From the sequence record NC_070990.1: 64,000 bases of DNA; one strand, written 5' to 3'. Positions 2 through 59,835 of this stretch are shown in pieces. The position numbers and the translations under genes are program-made. Each line of letters opens with the position of its first letter. The first letter of the stretch is position 1. Source of the DNA: Escherichia phage MN03. Below the pieces are notes generated by a model. It did not search any database and was not told the origin of the DNA. It saw only the letters and a list, made by a program, of their open reading frames with translations.

Positions 2-823
2 GAAGATGAAGATGAATCCTCTGAAGCAGAAGAACAAGAGGAAGAAGATTCAAGCGATGCAGAGTATGAAGATGATTCTGCTGACGGTGAAGGTGAAGTC
101 TTTGATGTAGACTACGAGACCGTTATCACCCTTCCTGATGGACGTGAGATGACTATTGAAGAACTTTCTAATGGCTATCTTACTGGTGCTGATATGACAG
201 AACGAGAATCAACTCTTCAGCGTCATATGGAAGCATTCGAGGAACGTGTAGTAGGTTTGAAGGATGTATTAGAACTAGCGTCTTTAGAAGCAGACCGAGT
301 AATTGAAGATTATAACGGTTTTGATTGGGACAAGCTTGCAGTAGAAGATCCTCAAGCATATGTTGAAAACAAACGTTTCCTAGAGAAGTACACAGCTCGC
401 CGTCAACAGCTTGAACAGGCTCAGGTCCGTATTAAGCAGGAAGCAGCAGCTAAAGAGCAGGAAGCTTTCCAAGCCAAGAGTATTGAATGTGTTAATATTC
501 TGAAACGTGAGATTCCAAATTGGGATGAAAACTTATATCAAAACTTAATGCAATACGCAATTGACTTAGGTGCTACTGAAGAAGAAGTATTGAAGGAAAA
601 CCGTCCGTCTATTTTCCTAGCTCTCCACAAAGCATACCAATTTGATAAAGGTAAGCAACAGGTGATGGCTAAGATTAAACGTCCCGGTGCTCCACGCAAG
701 GTTGTGAAGTCTGATGCTGCAAAGTCTCGCACTTCCAATAAGCCCGACAACGCTAAGGTTGCCAAGGCATTCGCAGAGGGTCGCGTTAGTCACGAAGACG
801 CATTCAAATTCCTCGTAGATTAA
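2..823 (+). CDS. putative head scaffolding protein, 5' end outside window
   Basis: Frame is open from nt 2 with no stop before the ATG at 149; E/D-rich acidic N-part and charged helical body; lies immediately upstream of the capsid gene. Confidence 0.45.
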   Translation, partial: EDEDESSEAEEQEEEDSSDAEYEDDSADGEGEVFDVDYETVITLPDGREMTIEELSNGYLTGADMTERESTLQRHMEAFEERVVGLKDVLELASLEADRVIEDYNGFDWDKLAVEDPQAYVENKRFLEKYTARRQQLEQAQVRIKQEAAAKEQEAFQAKSIECVNILKREIPNWDENLYQNLMQYAIDLGATEEEVLKENRPSIFLALHKAYQFDKGKQQVMAKIKRPGAPRKVVKSDAAKSRTSNKPDNAKVAKAFAEGRVSHEDAFKFLVD

Positions 824-864
824 TCGACAAATTAAATTATTAATAGTATAGGAGCTAACATAAC

Positions 865-1923
865 ATGGCTAATCCAACTTTATTTGTATCGTATGACCAG
901 AATGGTAAAAAACTTTCTTTTGCTAACTGGATTTCTGTTCTGTCCCCTCAGGATACCCCGTTCGTATCTATGACCGGTAAAGAGTCTATCAACCAGACTA
1001 TCTTTAGCTGGCAGACCGATGCACTGGCAAGCGTTGACGGTAATAACGCACACGTCGAAGGCTCTCGTGCTGAAGACGGCGAAATGAAACCGACTGTTAT
1101 CAAATCTAACGTTACTCAGATTCTGCGTAAGGTTGTTCGTGTTTCTGATACTGCTAACACCACCGCTAACTACGGTCGTGGTCGTGAACTGATGTATCAG
1201 CTGGAGAAGAAAGGTAAAGAGATCAAGCGTGACCTCGAGAAAATCCTTCTGTCCGGTCAGGCTCGTACCGACGTTCTGGCTGATCAGTACCTGACTAACT
1301 CTGCAACTGATCCTGCAACTGTTGGTCTGAACGACACTCATGCAGCTCGTAAGACTGGTGCATTCCAGTTCCTGTGTGCTCACGGTGGTCTTGCTGGTGG
1401 CGTTGTTGACAAGACCAAGAATGGTCCTGCTGACCCGGATACTGGTGCAGTAACTGTTAAAGTTGCACAGAATGCTTCTAACCCGACCACTAACATTGGT
1501 TTTGACGAAGCTGATATCTTTGATATGACTCTGCAACTGTATACCGCTGGTTCTGAAGCAGATATCATCATGATTAACCCGGCTCATGCTAAGATCTTCG
1601 CTGGTCTGCAAGAAAATACTCAGGGTTCACGTAAGCGTATCTTTGAGAACACCAAGCAGTTCATCTACGAAGTTAACAGCATCACTGACCCGCTGGGCCA
1701 GAGCTACAAAATCATCGTTAACCGTTGGATGCCTACCGATGCAGTTTACTTCTTCCGTAGCGCTGACTGGACTCAGATGGTTCTGCGTGCTCCGAAACGC
1801 ACTGAACTGGCTAAAGACGGTTCTTACGAGAAGTGGATGATTGAAATGGAAGTTGGTCTGCGTCACCGCAACCCGTACGCTTCCGGCGTTCTGTTCACTG
1901 CCGCGGGAAAGGTGGTGGCGTAA
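865..1923 (+). CDS. major capsid protein
   Basis: AGGAG RBS; strongly biased high-expression codon usage; followed by an Ig-like -1 frame ORF and a strong intrinsic terminator; position after scaffold. Confidence 0.7.
   Translation: MANPTLFVSYDQNGKKLSFANWISVLSPQDTPFVSMTGKESINQTIFSWQTDALASVDGNNAHVEGSRAEDGEMKPTVIKSNVTQILRKVVRVSDTANTTANYGRGRELMYQLEKKGKEIKRDLEKILLSGQARTDVLADQYLTNSATDPATVGLNDTHAARKTGAFQFLCAHGGLAGGVVDKTKNGPADPDTGAVTVKVAQNASNPTTNIGFDEADIFDMTLQLYTAGSEADIIMINPAHAKIFAGLQENTQGSRKRIFENTKQFIYEVNSITDPLGQSYKIIVNRWMPTDAVYFFRSADWTQMVLRAPKRTELAKDGSYEKWMIEMEVGLRHRNPYASGVLFTAAGKVVA
1905..1911 (+). other. candidate -1 ribosomal frameshift slippery heptamer G_GGA_AAG
   Basis: X_XXY_YYZ heptamer in the capsid frame 4 codons before the capsid stop; the -1 frame is open from 1845 to 2447. 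Confidence 0.5.
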
Positions 1924-1934
1924 CAGTAGACAGT

Positions 1935-2447
1935 GTGACTGTTAGCCCTGCGTCTTTAGCAAGTCTAGAGACAGGGGCTACTCGGCAGTTCACTGCAAGC
2001 GCGGAGAAAAGTGATGGTTCTACCGAAACAACTGGCTTTACTTGGTCAGTGACAGGAGGTGGTTCTATCACTCAGTCTGGTTTGTATACTGCTCCGAGTG
2101 CGTCTCAATCCACTGATGTATCCATTACTGCAACTTTAGAAGGTGTTTCTGGTACAGCAACCATTTCTGAAATTGTTGCTCCTGCTCCTACTATTGTAGC
2201 TAAGGGTCCAATTACGGGTAAAACTGGTGGTTCTTCCACTAACTTCACTACCATGTTTACTGTAACTAGTTCTACTGCTGCGGATTACACGTTTGTTGTA
2301 ACCCCTACAGAAGCTGGTACAGTAAGCGCCGCTGGTGCGTTAACCTTAGATGCTGCTGCAAGTGGCGAAGTTACTGTTCAAGCAAGTTTGACAGCTGACC
2401 CATCCATCAATGCAACATGCACTTTTACTGGTGTAACACCTGCTTAA
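1935..2447 (+). CDS. Ig-like (Big_2-type) domain, probably a C-terminal extension of the capsid protein made by -1 frameshift
   Basis: T/S/A/G-rich Ig-like sequence (VTVSPASL...TGFTWSVTGGGSITQSGLYTAP); only a GTG start and no SD; in the -1 frame relative to the capsid gene. Confidence 0.5.
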   Translation: MTVSPASLASLETGATRQFTASAEKSDGSTETTGFTWSVTGGGSITQSGLYTAPSASQSTDVSITATLEGVSGTATISEIVAPAPTIVAKGPITGKTGGSSTNFTTMFTVTSSTAADYTFVVTPTEAGTVSAAGALTLDAAASGEVTVQASLTADPSINATCTFTGVTPA

Positions 2448-2454
2448 AATTAGA

Positions 2455-2480
2455 CCCTGCCTTCGGGCGGGGTTTTTTCG
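2455..2480 (+). terminator. rho-independent terminator after capsid/Ig ORF
   Basis: CCCTGCC-TTCG-GGCGGGG hairpin followed by a T-run. Confidence 0.8.
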
Positions 2481-2506
2481 TTTTAAGACCTATACAAGCC
2501 AGTGTG

Positions 2507-2515
2507 TAATGTATA
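2507..2515 (+). promoter_or_regulatory. TAATGTATA motif, candidate phage-sigma promoter
   Basis: Exact TAATGTATA 33 nt upstream of the ATG at 2549; the same motif recurs at similar spacing before other genes. Confidence 0.45.
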
Positions 2516-2548
2516 TTCTTTGTCTACATATAACAAGGAGGACAACCT

Positions 2549-3301
2549 ATGGCAATGCCAGATGTTCAATACCCCATCAATACCTATGGGTGGCTAAAGA
2601 AGGCCGTGGCCCTCTGGGCAGATAGGGACGATGACGAATTTGTTAATCAAATTCCAAACTTTATTAACTTTGCAGAGAAAGAGATTTATCGTAACTTACG
2701 TATTCCTCCTCTGGAAAAAGAAGTATATTTAGATATTAAAGATGGAGTAGCTTACATTCCTCCTGATTACTTAGAAGCTCAATGGATGATGAGAGCCAAA
2801 GATGGCACAATCTTCCAAGTAACCTCTCCTGAAGAGATTAGCTATCGTAGACAGCATGGAACAATTAACCCATCTCACTGGAATAACCAACCTGTCAACT
2901 TTGCTCGTTTCGGTAGTCGTTTCATTTTCTACCCTAGCATCGAAGCAGATACTCCGTACTACCCTGATGATGGAAGCCCTTTGATTCCAGCAGAAAACTC
3001 AGTGATTCTTAGCTATTATGCAGACCCACCGGAATTCCATGAAGATACAGATACTAGTACTATTCTTACTATAGCACCAGAACTTCTTCTGTATTTCACC
3101 CTACGTCATGCTTGTCTCTTTGTTCAAGATGATAATGGTGTTCAGAAATGGTCAGCATTAGGAAAAGCTATCCTTGATGAAATGGTAGAACAGAATAAGA
3201 AACAAGAGTACTCAGGTTCACCTATCGCAATTCCGAATAACATGACTCGACTTCAGAGCAGCTTGCCTGATATTTATGGTATTCGTACTTCTCGTGTATA
3301 A
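2549..3301 (+). CDS. hypothetical virion protein (possible head-tail adaptor or tail protein)
   Basis: AAGGAGG RBS; position between capsid and tail fibre genes. Confidence 0.45.
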   Translation: MAMPDVQYPINTYGWLKKAVALWADRDDDEFVNQIPNFINFAEKEIYRNLRIPPLEKEVYLDIKDGVAYIPPDYLEAQWMMRAKDGTIFQVTSPEEISYRRQHGTINPSHWNNQPVNFARFGSRFIFYPSIEADTPYYPDDGSPLIPAENSVILSYYADPPEFHEDTDTSTILTIAPELLLYFTLRHACLFVQDDNGVQKWSALGKAILDEMVEQNKKQEYSGSPIAIPNNMTRLQSSLPDIYGIRTSRV

Positions 3302-3310
3302 GGAGATAAT

Positions 3311-5869
3311 ATGATCGTTTATAATAACCAAGCACCTGATGCAGTGAATAACGTTGGGCAGTTTGGTGCTACTGAAGGCTCTATCGGAGCTTACAAGCAA
3401 GCAGCAGAATATGCAGCTGACTCCAAATATTGGGCACTGCTAGCAGAATCTAAGTTTGGTACAATTGATGATTTAATCGCTGAAGTAGAACGTCTATATC
3501 AACAGGGTGTTCTGATGAAGCAGGATATTGAAGATCTTAAGCAGGATTTTAAGGATCAAGATGCTCGTTTGATGACTCTGATTGCCCAAACCAACGCAGC
3601 AGTATCGGATGCTAATAATGCCGTTGCTCTCATTAACCAAAAACTTATTGAAGTCCAGAATCAGCTTGATGTTCTGTTAGGAATGTCTGTTGATGTAACA
3701 ACTCTCCCTCCGGGAACTCCGGCTACTGGCTCTTTTAATCCTAACACTGGTGTAATCTCTTTAGGTATTCCAGAAGGTGATCCCGGAAAAGATGGTTCTG
3801 TTAAGGATTTGGATACAGCACCTACAGGTGTTCCAGAGCTAGGTGATTTAGGTTTCTATGTTGACAAAGATGACAATACCGTCCACAAAACTACTCTAGA
3901 TAACATTGCTAATTTAATCCCATCTGTTCGTTCTGTCTCTATTAACGGCGGTCCAGCTCTTGATGGAGAGGTTGCTCTAACACTTAACAAAGAGACGGTA
4001 GGTTTAGGGAATGTTCTGAACGTTGCTCAGTACAGTCGTCAAGAGATTAATGACAAGTTTGATAAAACCACCAAGACATATCAATCTAAAGCAGAAGCTG
4101 ATGCTGACGCTCAGTATCGCCAAGTTGGTGAGAAGGTCTTAGTTTGGGAAGCTACTAAGTATGAATTTTATACTGTTGCTGCTAACAAAACATTAACTCC
4201 TGTTAAAACTGAAGGTAGAATTCTTACTGTTAATTCCCGTTCTCCAGACTCCAGTGGTAATATTGACATTACCATTCCAACAGGAAACCCTTCTCTATAT
4301 CTTGGTGAGATGGTAATGTTCCCTTATGACCCAACGAAGAATATCTCCTATCCGGGCGTTCTTCCAGCCGATGGTCGTCTAGTGTCTAAAGAGTCTGCTT
4401 CAGATTTAGGCCCATCCCTTGTCAGCGGACAGCTCCCTGTTGTTTCAGAAACTGAATGGCAATCGGGGGCTAAACAGTACTTCTCTTGGGGTAAATTGGC
4501 AGATGGTATTACCGATGCAGATTCTACTAATTTTATCAACATTCGACTTCCTGATTGGACTGGAGGGGAGGCAATAAGAGCACCAGATTCTGATAAAGAC
4601 TCTCAGTACAATGGGTCTGTACAGGCTCAGAAACCTTATGTTGTTACTGTAAATAACCAAGCTCCTGATGAGATTACTGGTAATGTGAACATCTCCAGAT
4701 CAATTTTAGGTGCTGCCGCTTCTGGTACAAACTCTGATATAACATCCCTCACGGGACTCACTACAGCACTGTCTGTCACACAAGGAGGCACTGGAGCTAA
4801 AGACGCTGCTAGTGCTCGTTCTAATCTAGGTCTAAGCTCCATAGCTACACTCAACACAATTCCTATAGCTAATGGTGGTACAGGGGCAACTACTGTTGAT
4901 GCTGCTCGTTCCAATTTATCTATAGATAGAGTTGATCAAGCCTCTGGGGAGAGTAGATTACTATCTCCTAACAAAGAAACCTACCTCTTTGTGGATAATA
5001 ATGGGTGGGGATGTTATAGTACCTCGCCTGGAAGAGTTGGCGATTTGGCTCTAGGTGTTGAAAGAGGAGGCACTGGAGCTAAAAATGCTGCTAGTGCTCG
5101 TTCTAATCTAGGGTTGGGAAGTGTTTCTACTCTGGATAATGTACCTATTGCTAATGGTGGGACAGGGGCTGGAGATGCTGCTGGTGCAAGGTTCAATATT
5201 GGAGCGCTAAGTAACACCCCAGCAAATTCAGGCGTAGGTGGTACTGGGGATCGTGTCCAACATGCCTCCGGGAACGGCCTGTTTACTTTAGACTTGTTTA
5301 ACTGCTACTGGTATATGCAGCCAGAGGATACTAACTTCTGGATTGCCCACGGTGTGTCATATGCAGGGTCTGGTGGCGAAGCCTCACAATACGGTCGCAT
5401 ATCTTACGCAATAAAGATTGCAGACGGAACAATAAAATATGTCCATTGTCTTACAAACAAAAACACCACTGTTGATGTAAACGGATTTATCAAAGCGGCA
5501 TCTCCGGTAGTTCATATTTACTCCGACGGTAGATATGAGACGAACGAGGAATCTGAGGGGGTTAATGTCATTCGGCAAGGTGTTGGTGAGTACTTGATTA
5601 CCGGTTGCCTTGGCTTAAACGCAGATGCAAAATGGGGAGGCATTGACGGCGGCTTTGAAATCCCTACTGACCGCAACAAACAACCTAGGGTTTGGCTGGA
5701 CTATGAGATTAAAGAAGATGGTTCTATTTTAGTTAAAACCTATCACAGAACCCATCCAACCTCTCCGGTTTTTGCTAGAAATGAGATAGAAGGTTTTTCT
5801 GACGGTGATCCTATTGATATCCCGAGTGATGCTTTTATTTCAGTTCGTGTTGAAATGCCTTCTGAGTAA
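3311..5869 (+). CDS. tail fibre protein
   Basis: Repeated GGTGA(K/T)xAAxARSNLG phage fibre-repeat motifs and an internal ~50-bp near-identical nucleotide repeat (about 4780 and 5057); 852 aa. Confidence 0.7.
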   Translation: MIVYNNQAPDAVNNVGQFGATEGSIGAYKQAAEYAADSKYWALLAESKFGTIDDLIAEVERLYQQGVLMKQDIEDLKQDFKDQDARLMTLIAQTNAAVSDANNAVALINQKLIEVQNQLDVLLGMSVDVTTLPPGTPATGSFNPNTGVISLGIPEGDPGKDGSVKDLDTAPTGVPELGDLGFYVDKDDNTVHKTTLDNIANLIPSVRSVSINGGPALDGEVALTLNKETVGLGNVLNVAQYSRQEINDKFDKTTKTYQSKAEADADAQYRQVGEKVLVWEATKYEFYTVAANKTLTPVKTEGRILTVNSRSPDSSGNIDITIPTGNPSLYLGEMVMFPYDPTKNISYPGVLPADGRLVSKESASDLGPSLVSGQLPVVSETEWQSGAKQYFSWGKLADGITDADSTNFINIRLPDWTGGEAIRAPDSDKDSQYNGSVQAQKPYVVTVNNQAPDEITGNVNISRSILGAAASGTNSDITSLTGLTTALSVTQGGTGAKDAASARSNLGLSSIATLNTIPIANGGTGATTVDAARSNLSIDRVDQASGESRLLSPNKETYLFVDNNGWGCYSTSPGRVGDLALGVERGGTGAKNAASARSNLGLGSVSTLDNVPIANGGTGAGDAAGARFNIGALSNTPANSGVGGTGDRVQHASGNGLFTLDLFNCYWYMQPEDTNFWIAHGVSYAGSGGEASQYGRISYAIKIADGTIKYVHCLTNKNTTVDVNGFIKAASPVVHIYSDGRYETNEESEGVNVIRQGVGEYLITGCLGLNADAKWGGIDGGFEIPTDRNKQPRVWLDYEIKEDGSILVKTYHRTHPTSPVFARNEIEGFSDGDPIDIPSDAFISVRVEMPSE

Positions 5870-8200: not shown

Positions 8201-8419
8201 ATGAAAATGATGAAACAAGCTGCATATGGTTTAATATGTTTAGGCGCAGGTGTTGTGGTATCCACCGCAGTTCCTGTAGGCGCAGTTCATCCATTAGTAA
8301 CTGTCCCTGCTCCAGTAGAGAAGCTTAGCTCTCAATGCAAGCAGAGAACAATTCAAAATAACTTAGTTGTTATTTGCCCTGATGCTGAATCTAACGCTCT
8401 GAGAAAGATACTACCTTAA
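8201..8419 (+). CDS. small signal-anchored or secreted protein (holin-like candidate)
   Basis: 72 aa with an N-terminal 23-aa hydrophobic segment; immediately upstream of the lysozyme gene. Confidence 0.4.
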   Translation: MKMMKQAAYGLICLGAGVVVSTAVPVGAVHPLVTVPAPVEKLSSQCKQRTIQNNLVVICPDAESNALRKILP

Positions 8420-8448
8420 TTTAAAGGGACTACAAAAGGAGGTTAGAA

Positions 8449-40006: not shown

Positions 40007-40570
40007 TTAGTAAGACACGTCACCACTTGAATGGGACATGTTGCTCTTGACGAAGTAGCAATACTTGCCAAGACCTTCATTAATCTCTTGAAGCATACTC
40101 TGATCAACAGGGTAGGTGGCTAAATCACCATCAAACTCATCCATCTTCTCAATAATACACATCAAGGTCATGCACATATCAGAGAGCATACCGTCCATAT
40201 CTAGGTCAGCATTACCCTCTGAGAACCAAGCATGAGAAAGATAGTTAGCTGCTGTAGCGTCCACTTTAACGCAGTGGTAACGCATACGTTCAGCAATACG
40301 ATCTCCTACCTGTCGTGCGTAATCTTCCAGCTCATCAAACATACCATGAACACCCTGAAATCCTGCACCAGAGACGTTCCAGTGGTAGTTTTTAGCTTTG
40401 ATATGCAAGAGTTCCATGTTAGCTTGTAAGCAGCTCAGGATGTGTTCTAGGCTGTTTGCACTAATCATGCCTTGCATTGTTTCAAGGCGAGAGATTGAAA
40501 GATCAGACCGGTCTAACATACTATAGCTGTCACGACCAATCTCAGGTAAATCAAAGACATTCTTATGCAT
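40007..40570 (-). CDS. Dps-like ferritin-fold protein
   Basis: HWNVSGAGFQGVHGMFDE ... DRIAERM matches the Dps signature. Confidence 0.6.
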   Translation of the reverse strand: MHKNVFDLPEIGRDSYSMLDRSDLSISRLETMQGMISANSLEHILSCLQANMELLHIKAKNYHWNVSGAGFQGVHGMFDELEDYARQVGDRIAERMRYHCVKVDATAANYLSHAWFSEGNADLDMDGMLSDMCMTLMCIIEKMDEFDGDLATYPVDQSMLQEINEGLGKYCYFVKSNMSHSSGDVSY

Positions 40571-40892
40571 TTGGGTTTTCTCCATCAAGTTCAACTGAGT
40601 TAGCAACGTTACGTGCAATATTATCCATTACCTGCTGGGTAATTACGATGCAGTTCTGTGGGTCTACTGACTTAGAACGCCCCATTTCAGGGTCATACAC
40701 CTTAACTCGCTTAGCAGTTGAACCTGTAACCTGAAGAACCTTCAACAGATATCCCTGATTACCAATAGACCAAGCAACAACATCACGATTCTTGATAAAG
40801 CGACCAAGCATATCACGATGATAAAACTGTTGCATCACCTTGGATTTTGTAATCTCTTCAGTGGGCGGGGCCACTTTACTCAAATCTAACAT
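40563..40892 (-). CDS. hypothetical protein
   Basis: ORF; AATGTATA-type motif 39 nt upstream. Confidence 0.4.
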   Translation of the reverse strand: MLDLSKVAPPTEEITKSKVMQQFYHRDMLGRFIKNRDVVAWSIGNQGYLLKVLQVTGSTAKRVKVYDPEMGRSKSVDPQNCIVITQQVMDNIARNVANSVELDGENPNA

Positions 40893-59759: not shown

Positions 59760-59835
59760 TGGTGCGCCCTACAGGACTCGAACCTGTAACCAATAGCTTA
59801 GAAGGCTACTGCTCTATCCATTGAGCTAAGAGCGC
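59760..59835 (-). tRNA. tRNA-Arg(UCU): tRNA-Arg (anticodon UCU)
   Basis: Manual fold: acceptor GCGCTCT/AGGGCGC, D-arm GCTC/GAGC, anticodon stem GTAGC/GCTAT with loop CTTCTAA, T-arm ACAGG-TTCGAGT-CCTGT, discriminator A, encoded CCA. Confidence 0.85.

Follow-up and report, generated by a model that had tools for sequence, protein, structure and literature searches.

The major capsid gene of Escherichia phage MN03 is followed by an open reading frame (ORF) for an immunoglobulin (Ig)-like protein in the -1 frame, which raises the question of whether the two are expressed separately or whether some ribosomes change frame and append Ig-like domains to the capsid protein. A first-pass annotation of the 64,000-nucleotide (nt) MN03 sequence (NC_070990.1; the whole stretch is referred to below as the window) had proposed a programmed -1 frameshift that fuses the two. 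Our analysis indicates that this is very probably the -1 programmed ribosomal frameshift already known from, and published for, the genus Kuravirus, which would yield a minority capsid isoform bearing Ig-like domains. The fusion proposal is supported by conservation, by codon periodicity, by loss of the candidate GTG start in 7 of 17 relatives, by distant relatives and by the literature on phages SU10, Privateer and YF01. The MN03 genome is that of a Kuravirus (phiEco32-like), a genus of prolate E. coli podoviruses, and shares 98-99.8% identity with deposited phages. Region 800..2560 is matched by 124 phage records, of which the closest are Escherichia phages TH06, KM01 and phiEc_1 (99.8%); identity to phiEco32 is 98.4%.

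Slip site and reading frames at the end of the capsid gene

The ORF list confirms that the capsid gene ends at 1923, with TAA at 1921..1923. Its last zero-frame codons are GCC, GCG (1903), GGA (1906), AAG (1909), GTG, GTG, GCG and TAA. Because GGA and AAG begin at 1906 and 1909, GGGAAAG at 1905..1911 has the X_XXY_YYZ phase of a slippery heptamer, G_GGA_AAG, and three sense codons separate it from the stop. The heptamer had been picked out in the first-pass annotation and is in the right phase, and the -1 frame, said there to be open from 1845, indeed runs uninterrupted from that position to the stop at 2445..2447. The slip site is overlapped by a long -1-frame ORF that has no conserved start signal of its own.

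Joining capsid residues 1-349 to the -1 continuation gives a computed long isoform of 527 amino acids (aa) and 55.6 kDa. A tandem slip would produce the fusion junction ...TAAGK-GGGVTVDSVTVSPASL..., which agrees with the TAAG-K transition proposed earlier; the accompanying length of about 528 aa is corrected by one residue. The predicted stretch across this junction is ...TAAGKGGGVTVD..., and the predicted tryptic peptide of the long isoform after K349 is GGGVTVDSVTVSPASLASLETGATR, part of which is encoded 5' of the GTG codon at 1935.

The frequency of the heptamer was considered as evidence and rejected. The window holds 4 copies of GGGAAAG where 7.4 would be expected, so that the motif alone is uninformative, and the phase and the length of the -1 frame decide. 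None of the remaining three copies stands in the equivalent phase inside a long ORF. For a comparison with chance, 42 in-phase X_XXY_YYZ heptamers were collected from window ORFs of at least 100 aa: the -1 opening at 1905..1911 spans 180 codons and the runner-up 24. The configuration of a heptamer with a long -1 frame at this locus is far beyond chance.

Elsewhere in the window, the overlapping in-phase heptamers A_AAC_CCA and C_CCA_AAU occur 1-2 codons before the stop of an ORF at 40563-40892 (- strand). The -1 frame there adds about 17 residues past the stop, probably by chance.

Conservation and selection in close relatives

The locus was compared across 18 Kuravirus and Suseptimavirus sequences. 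The heptamer is unchanged and in phase in all 18, and the codons GCG GGA AAG are constant; the adjacent Ala, Thr and Val codons differ at third positions. The extension is intact in every sequence except that of SU10. Its length is 180-182 aa in 13 of the 17 intact cases, 457 aa in Bas87 and 545 aa in YF01, while in TH43 and Bas89, which were counted as intact, it is still open at the end of the sequence examined.

Nine sites vary between the heptamer and position 1937, and six of them (1913, 1916, 1928, 1931, 1934 and 1937) fall on the third base of a -1-frame codon. At 1913 and 1916 the substitutions are silent in that frame, in which Gly-Gly-Gly is kept, and alter the zero-frame tail, which reads VVA, VAA, AAA, AGA or VEA. 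Insertions in the linker are AGT or AGC, invariably 3 nt long. The -1-frame periodicity, the 3-nt indels and the constant heptamer therefore indicate that the -1 frame is under selection from the heptamer on, and no independent start is conserved.

Against the relatives, the extension has a ratio of nonsynonymous to synonymous divergence (dN/dS) of 0.10-0.25 and the capsid part one of 0.08-0.10, and the aligned sequences indicate that the extension is under purifying selection. Against L006 (window 1905-2447 versus L006:4541-5086), synonymous divergence (dS) is 0.17 across the capsid part but 1.09 across the extension. This jump implies that the Ig module has been exchanged by recombination, with a boundary at or near the slip site.

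The GTG codon at 1935 as a possible separate start

Among the GenBank records inspected, only that of YF01 annotates a joined coding sequence (CDS), as a two-piece join, and most others list two separate genes. A separate CDS is annotated in phiEco32, ShigP1, KM01, SU7, MN05, ES17 and others. Such records correspond to a rival explanation, in which the Ig ORF is a gene of its own whose translation begins at GTG 1935, directly or through reinitiation after the TAA at 1921..1923, and yields a free 170-aa (16.6-kDa) decoration protein that attaches non-covalently. GTG 1935 is the first -1-frame start codon past the capsid stop and lies only 11 nt beyond it, near enough for coupling, and the authors of the SU10 cryo-electron microscopy (cryo-EM) study considered gp10 a possible separate minor capsid protein.

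The start itself speaks against this explanation. As the first-pass annotation had pointed out, GTG is the only start available and no Shine-Dalgarno sequence accompanies it, whereas all four neighbouring genes that were checked (the capsid gene, the adaptor gene and the next two) carry AGGAG, AAGGAGG or AAGGAG 6-11 nt upstream of their ATG. Of the 17 relatives whose extension is intact, nine have GTG at 1935 and one (O18-011) has ATG, the latter a point in favour of a separate gene, but GTA or ATA replaces it in the other seven. The next start codons in those seven fall at extension residue 18, 19, 36 or 49, so that initiation there would delete 18-49 residues of the first Ig-like domain. GTG 1935 lies inside predicted strand A of that domain, which in the AlphaFold2 model starts at extension residue 8, three residues earlier. 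Moreover, the -1-frame codon periodicity and the 3-nt indels reach from GTG 1935 back to the heptamer, and distant relatives with different Ig modules have either an open -1 frame behind a slip site or an in-frame fusion (see below). We consider a separate gene starting at GTG 1935 improbable.

In database entries of the extension, the starts assigned by gene callers are inconsistent and cut into the Ig domain. In most deposited Kuravirus genomes the extension appears under an arbitrary start as 'Ig domain containing protein' or 'hypothetical protein', and the frameshift reading is of value for their annotation.

Other routes to Ig extensions in distant relatives

A more distant set comprised capsid homologues of 42-66% identity. 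In L010-L012, G_GUA_AAG (near 4412-4418) stands one codon before the stop, and the -1 frame past it encodes two Big_2 domains with strong matches (E 9e-35). L013 also carries G_GUA_AAG (near 4412-4418), followed there by an I-set/Ig_3 domain in the -1 frame. In L016 and L017, G_GGA_AAG abuts the stop and I-set and Big_2 domains follow, and in E. coli phage PJNS034 (L032, near 2385-2391) C_CCA_AAA lies one codon before the stop and is followed by an Ig_3/I-set domain. In L015, A_AAA_AAG (4421-4427) opens merely a 44-aa proline-rich extension with no family match.

Duplicated and in-frame arrangements also occur. Salmonella phage SE131 has tandem capsid genes (L030:485-1423 and 1501-3261), one encoding a plain protein of 312 aa and the other a protein of 586 aa with Big_2 in frame. 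In the 7-11-type contigs L019 and L023, SU10_MCP and Big_2 are combined in one 585-aa in-frame ORF (Pfam check on L019). GAP52 has two capsid copies (L031:1492-2448 and 2529-3629) of 318 and 366 aa. The extension is absent in L014/GAP52 first copy, L020, L021 and Vp_R1, and in several extension-free relatives a hairpin or terminator lies directly 3' of the capsid stop. A single capsid family thus has three outcomes, namely frameshifting (at four slip sites), in-frame fusion on a duplicated gene, and no module. The in-frame fusion in one branch, taken together with several unrelated slip sites, strongly indicates a physical linkage between the Ig modules and the capsid protein.

These alternative sites also bear on a transcriptional explanation, in which RNA polymerase slips on GGGAAAG, a fraction of the mRNA lacks one base, and the same protein is produced. 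Transcriptional slippage needs long homopolymers, typically of 6-9 or more A or T, whereas the runs in GGGAAAG are just three bases long, and G_GUA_AAG and C_CCA_AAA are ribosomal-slippage motifs, not homopolymers. We regard slippage by the polymerase as extremely unlikely.

Ig-like domains of the extension

The Big_2-type assignment made for the downstream ORF is borne out by a marginal Pfam match together with structure prediction. Pfam Big_2 matches domain 1 only, at 24.5 bits against a gathering cutoff of 22.8, and no significant Pfam match was obtained for domain 2. Relatives reach far higher Big_2 scores than MN03, such as 118.9 bits in L010. An AlphaFold2 model of the extension, built with an alignment of homologues, has a mean predicted local distance difference test (pLDDT) score of 95.9 and consists of two all-beta Ig-like sandwiches. 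Among solved structures, this two-domain model is closest to Leptospira LigA (8gyr, E 1e-10), at its pair of tandem Big_2 domains; invasin, SraP, FdeC, S-layer and other Ig-type modules rank next. In a large protein collection, homologues of the extension fall nearly all within the phiEco32-like phage group, the best being an 'Ig domain containing protein' of MN05 (95% identical).

By analogy with T4 Hoc and other phage Ig domains, those of the extension would probably adhere weakly to carbohydrate or cell surfaces. ES17, a Kuravirus that retains the heptamer and a 180-aa extension, binds mucin; its authors credit this to the tail fibre alone, and the capsid extension does not figure in the passages searched.

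The SU10 exception and reports on related virions

SU10 keeps the heptamer, and one extra base soon after the capsid stop ends its -1 frame after 13 codons at a TAG. The remainder of the Ig ORF is shifted into the capsid zero frame, behind TAA and TAG. Either mutation in the laboratory or a sequencing error could account for the 1-nt insertion. From SU10 it is evident that laboratory growth does not require the extension, and the sole solved Kuravirus capsid, that of SU10, comes from a phage with a disrupted extension.

The extra base also touches the RNA downstream of the slip site: in SU10 (L003:1622-1650, about 8406-8434 of KM044272.1) it makes the first downstream hairpin a perfect 9-base-pair stem (AACAGUAGA/UCUACUGUU).

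The frameshift itself has been described in this group. Mirzaei et al. 2014 reported 'ribosomal slippage' on GGGAAAG in SU10 CDS9, which fuses the Ig-like CDS10 (gp9+gp10) 'as in phage phiEco32', and gave two SU10 capsid forms of 38.5 and 55.4 kDa. For the Proteus phage Privateer, Corban et al. 2021 described a slip signal, two gel bands and a minor capsid protein identified by mass spectrometry. In the 2023 YF01 paper, both isoforms are set out for the Kuravirus-like group as a whole, and the general pattern of Ig-like extensions reached by frameshifting was reviewed by Atkins et al. 2016.

The SU10 exception lends some support to a third alternative, in which the ORF downstream is a relic without expression, the heptamer occurs there by coincidence and the capsid gene yields nothing but the 352-aa protein. 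SU10 propagates with its -1 frame closed after 13 codons and has a capsid without extra density, and the extension-free relatives named above do without the module altogether. Against this stand a dN/dS of 0.10-0.25 over 180 codons, a -1 frame intact in 17 of 18 close relatives, a heptamer that is unvarying at synonymous positions and a confident fold prediction. The extensions have also been swapped and enlarged, as in Bas87 and YF01, which argues for ongoing use, and a longer capsid species has been reported in related virions. We consider it very unlikely that the ORF is a relic.

RNA structure downstream of the heptamer

A stimulator of frameshifting was defined as an RNA structure 5-9 nt downstream of the heptamer or as a Shine-Dalgarno-like element upstream of it. 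No such upstream element was seen in the sequence at the heptamer. Downstream, a consensus fold of nine sequences contains two adjoining hairpins (Table 1). All cells of hairpins 1 and 2 are paired in 9/9 sequences, compared with 28-47% of cells in slid controls. Three pairs vary on both sides, including 60/74 (UA, AU, GC) and 61/73 (GC, UG) in hairpin 2. The covariation, no more than suggestive because few independent lineages contribute, scores 0.190 versus 0.090 in shuffles, and none of 500 shuffles reaches 0.190. Folding of the single sequence 1912..1956 gives -15.5 kcal/mol (z -2.0). In L010-L012, L016 and L017, a hairpin begins 6 nt past the respective slip site.

We regard a stimulatory role of the two downstream hairpins as no more than plausible, since few lineages contribute and the fold itself comes from those same sequences. 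To our knowledge, the identical heptamer of phage lambda requires no stimulatory structure.

A different stem-loop, with the heptamer in its loop, was put forward by Mirzaei et al. 2014. We rejected it as a stimulator: MN03 forms its stem only with G-U pairs, and a ribosome on the slip site would already have opened the stem.

Proposed mechanism

In the proposed pathway, most ribosomes would translate GGA-AAG-GTG-GTG-GCG-TAA to its end and terminate with the 352-aa capsid protein. In the minority that shift, tRNA-Gly in the P site and tRNA-Lys in the A site would slip back together by one base on G_GGA_AAG, and these ribosomes would translate the Gly-Gly-Gly linker and the two tandem Ig-like (Big_2-type) domains up to the stop at 2445..2447. 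The 527-aa isoform would then co-assemble into the prolate HK97-fold shell and probably display its Ig domains on the surface.

By analogy with the identical heptamer in lambda G-T, the slippage efficiency would be a few percent. The SU10 shell contains 715 capsid subunits, and the YF01 paper cites frameshift rates of about 3.5% for lambda G-T and about 10% for the T3/T7 capsid gene. Taking these two rates with the 715 subunits, and if incorporation is proportional, some 25-70 Ig-bearing subunits would be expected per head.

Several points weigh against a frameshifted isoform in MN03, or reduce the support that can be drawn from its relatives. For MN03 itself, the long isoform is a prediction from the sequence. 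The ATG of O18-011, at the codon equivalent to GTG 1935, makes some separate initiation possible. The hairpin spacing is ambiguous, being 11 nt for hairpin 1 of the consensus fold or 5 nt for an extended form that competes with hairpin 2. The SU10 cryo-EM study found no extra capsid density, and the YF01 paper states that sodium dodecyl sulfate-polyacrylamide gel electrophoresis of SU10 showed no longer capsid band; both absences are accounted for by the 1-nt insertion that closes the SU10 -1 frame, and the YF01 authors had earlier pointed out the SU10 stop codon. According to Corban et al. 2021, the product of the shift had been seen in both phiEco32 and SU10, which for phiEco32 is a second-hand citation. 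Finally, the mass-spectrometry table for SU10 (PMC4281155 Table 2) lists gp9 with 78.1% coverage and 23 peptides, and gp9+10 with 50.29% coverage and 22 peptides. We rejected it as proof of the fusion, as these figures fit peptides of the capsid part alone.

A more speculative extension of the frameshift reading, which we put forward only tentatively and consider doubtful, is that the hairpins at 1917/1923..1980 may act as an uncharacterised stimulator that sets the Ig-bearing share of the approximately 715 subunits, and that those subunits may aid the adherence of ES17 to mucin. If true, both the hairpin stimulator and a role of the capsid Ig domains in mucin adherence would be new.

Gene neighbourhood and other features of the window

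The identity of the capsid gene is well supported. Pfam SU10_MCP matches the product of 865..1923 with E 6e-77 and 259 bits (cutoff 24.1), and the solved SU10 capsid protein 7z45_A matches it with E 9e-235. The ORF upstream has the scaffolding protein as its counterpart, and the ORF downstream (2549..3301) the SU10-type adaptor. A search of 700..2700 found no promoter on the + strand between the capsid gene and the Ig ORF. The strong terminator that had been claimed 3' of the Ig ORF is present, and the SU10 record annotates a terminator at the equivalent site. Coordinates are collected in Table 1.

Table 1 Features of the capsid locus of Escherichia phage MN03, in window coordinates
Feature	Position	Strand	Description and basis
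Major capsid protein gene	865..1923	+	Zero-frame product of 352 aa, 38.7 kDa; HK97 fold, SU10_MCP family; ORF list, Pfam
Slippery heptamer G_GGA_AAG	1905..1911	+	X_XXY_YYZ phase; proposed site of tandem -1 tRNA slippage; read from sequence
-1 frame coding continuation	1911..2447	+	178 codons + TAA, read after the proposed slip
Gly-Gly-Gly linker	1911..1919	+	-1 frame; overlaps zero-frame codons for Val-Val-Ala
Hairpin 1 (AACAGU...ACUGUU)	1923..1942	+	Consensus fold; alternative extended form from 1917, 5 nt past the heptamer
Ig-like domain 1 (Big_2 type)	1926..2165	+	Extension residues 8-87; Pfam Big_2 residues 8-85; AlphaFold2 pLDDT ~97, strand A residues 8-14
GTG annotated as separate 'Ig domain protein' start in most GenBank records	1935..1937	+	Judged not to be the main expression route
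Hairpin 2	1943..1980	+	Adjoins hairpin 1; compensatory changes in relatives
Ig-like domain 2	2190..2438	+	Extension residues 96-178; AlphaFold2 beta-sandwich, pLDDT 95-98
Intrinsic terminator 3' of extension	2452..2485	+	10-pair stem 2452..2475, 6 G-C pairs, TTCG loop, then T run

Within the capsid gene, a 243-aa ORF runs antisense at 880-1611 (- strand) and probably just reflects the codon bias of a gene with high expression. Further downstream, an 852-aa tail-fibre-like ORF (3311-5869, +) contains repeats of the form GGTGAK(D/N)AASARSNLGL...IANGGTGA, which are typical of phage tail-fibre repeats. One tRNA-Arg gene (anticodon TCT) lies at 59760-59835 (- strand), on which ARAGORN and Rfam agree. 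This tRNA is the sole RNA family match in an Rfam scan of the window, which returned none of the known frameshift element families.

Comparison with known systems

The closest counterparts are the long capsid proteins of the Kuravirus-like phages, namely phiEco32 gp11-gp12, SU10 gp9+gp10, the joined gp8 of YF01 and the major and minor capsid proteins of the Proteus phage Privateer. They share with MN03 the SU10_MCP family, the heptamer GGGAAAG and its place, the -1 frame and a homologous Big_2-type extension. There is no substantive difference between them and MN03, and the length of the extension varies within the group.

Phage lambda uses the same signal for another purpose. The slippery heptamer of lambda G-T is identical, G_GGA_AAG, and the frameshift is likewise carried out by E. 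coli ribosomes, but it sets a tail chaperone ratio and does not add a domain to the capsid surface.

In gene 10A/10B of phages T3 and T7, a -1 shift close to the capsid gene's end produces a minor, longer subunit that co-assembles, and the T3 extension has been described as Ig-like. Unlike MN03, these phages use another slip sequence, and the T7 extension is not Ig-like. The T7 and MN03 capsid families are at best distantly related, no T7-like phage being present among the tblastn matches listed. The first-pass annotation had likened the MN03 locus to T7 10A/10B and to frameshift-added Ig domains in other phages, and the literature draws the same analogies.

Frameshift-added Ig domains (Fraser et al. 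2006; Lactobacillus phage A2; Listeria phages A118, A500 and PSA) are attached C-terminally to capsid or tail proteins, through -1 or +1 shifts or in frame, and are exchanged between phages. These cases involve other hosts and capsid families than MN03 but follow the same principle, and the relatives of MN03 repeat the pattern of exchange. The 7-11-like phage SE131 arrives at what is proposed for MN03, both plain and Big_2-bearing subunits, but obtains them by gene duplication with an in-frame fusion; without recoding, its subunit ratio is therefore not set by ribosome slippage. Phage T4 Hoc, and with it the 'bacteriophage adherence to mucus' model, offers a possible functional parallel, in that Ig-like domains on the capsid surface are proposed to bind glycans. 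Hoc, however, is a separate, unfused decoration protein, whereas the Ig domains of MN03 are predicted to be fused to the capsid protein. Set beside these systems, MN03 would be a further clean example of exchangeable Ig-like modules carried on a fraction of the capsid subunits.

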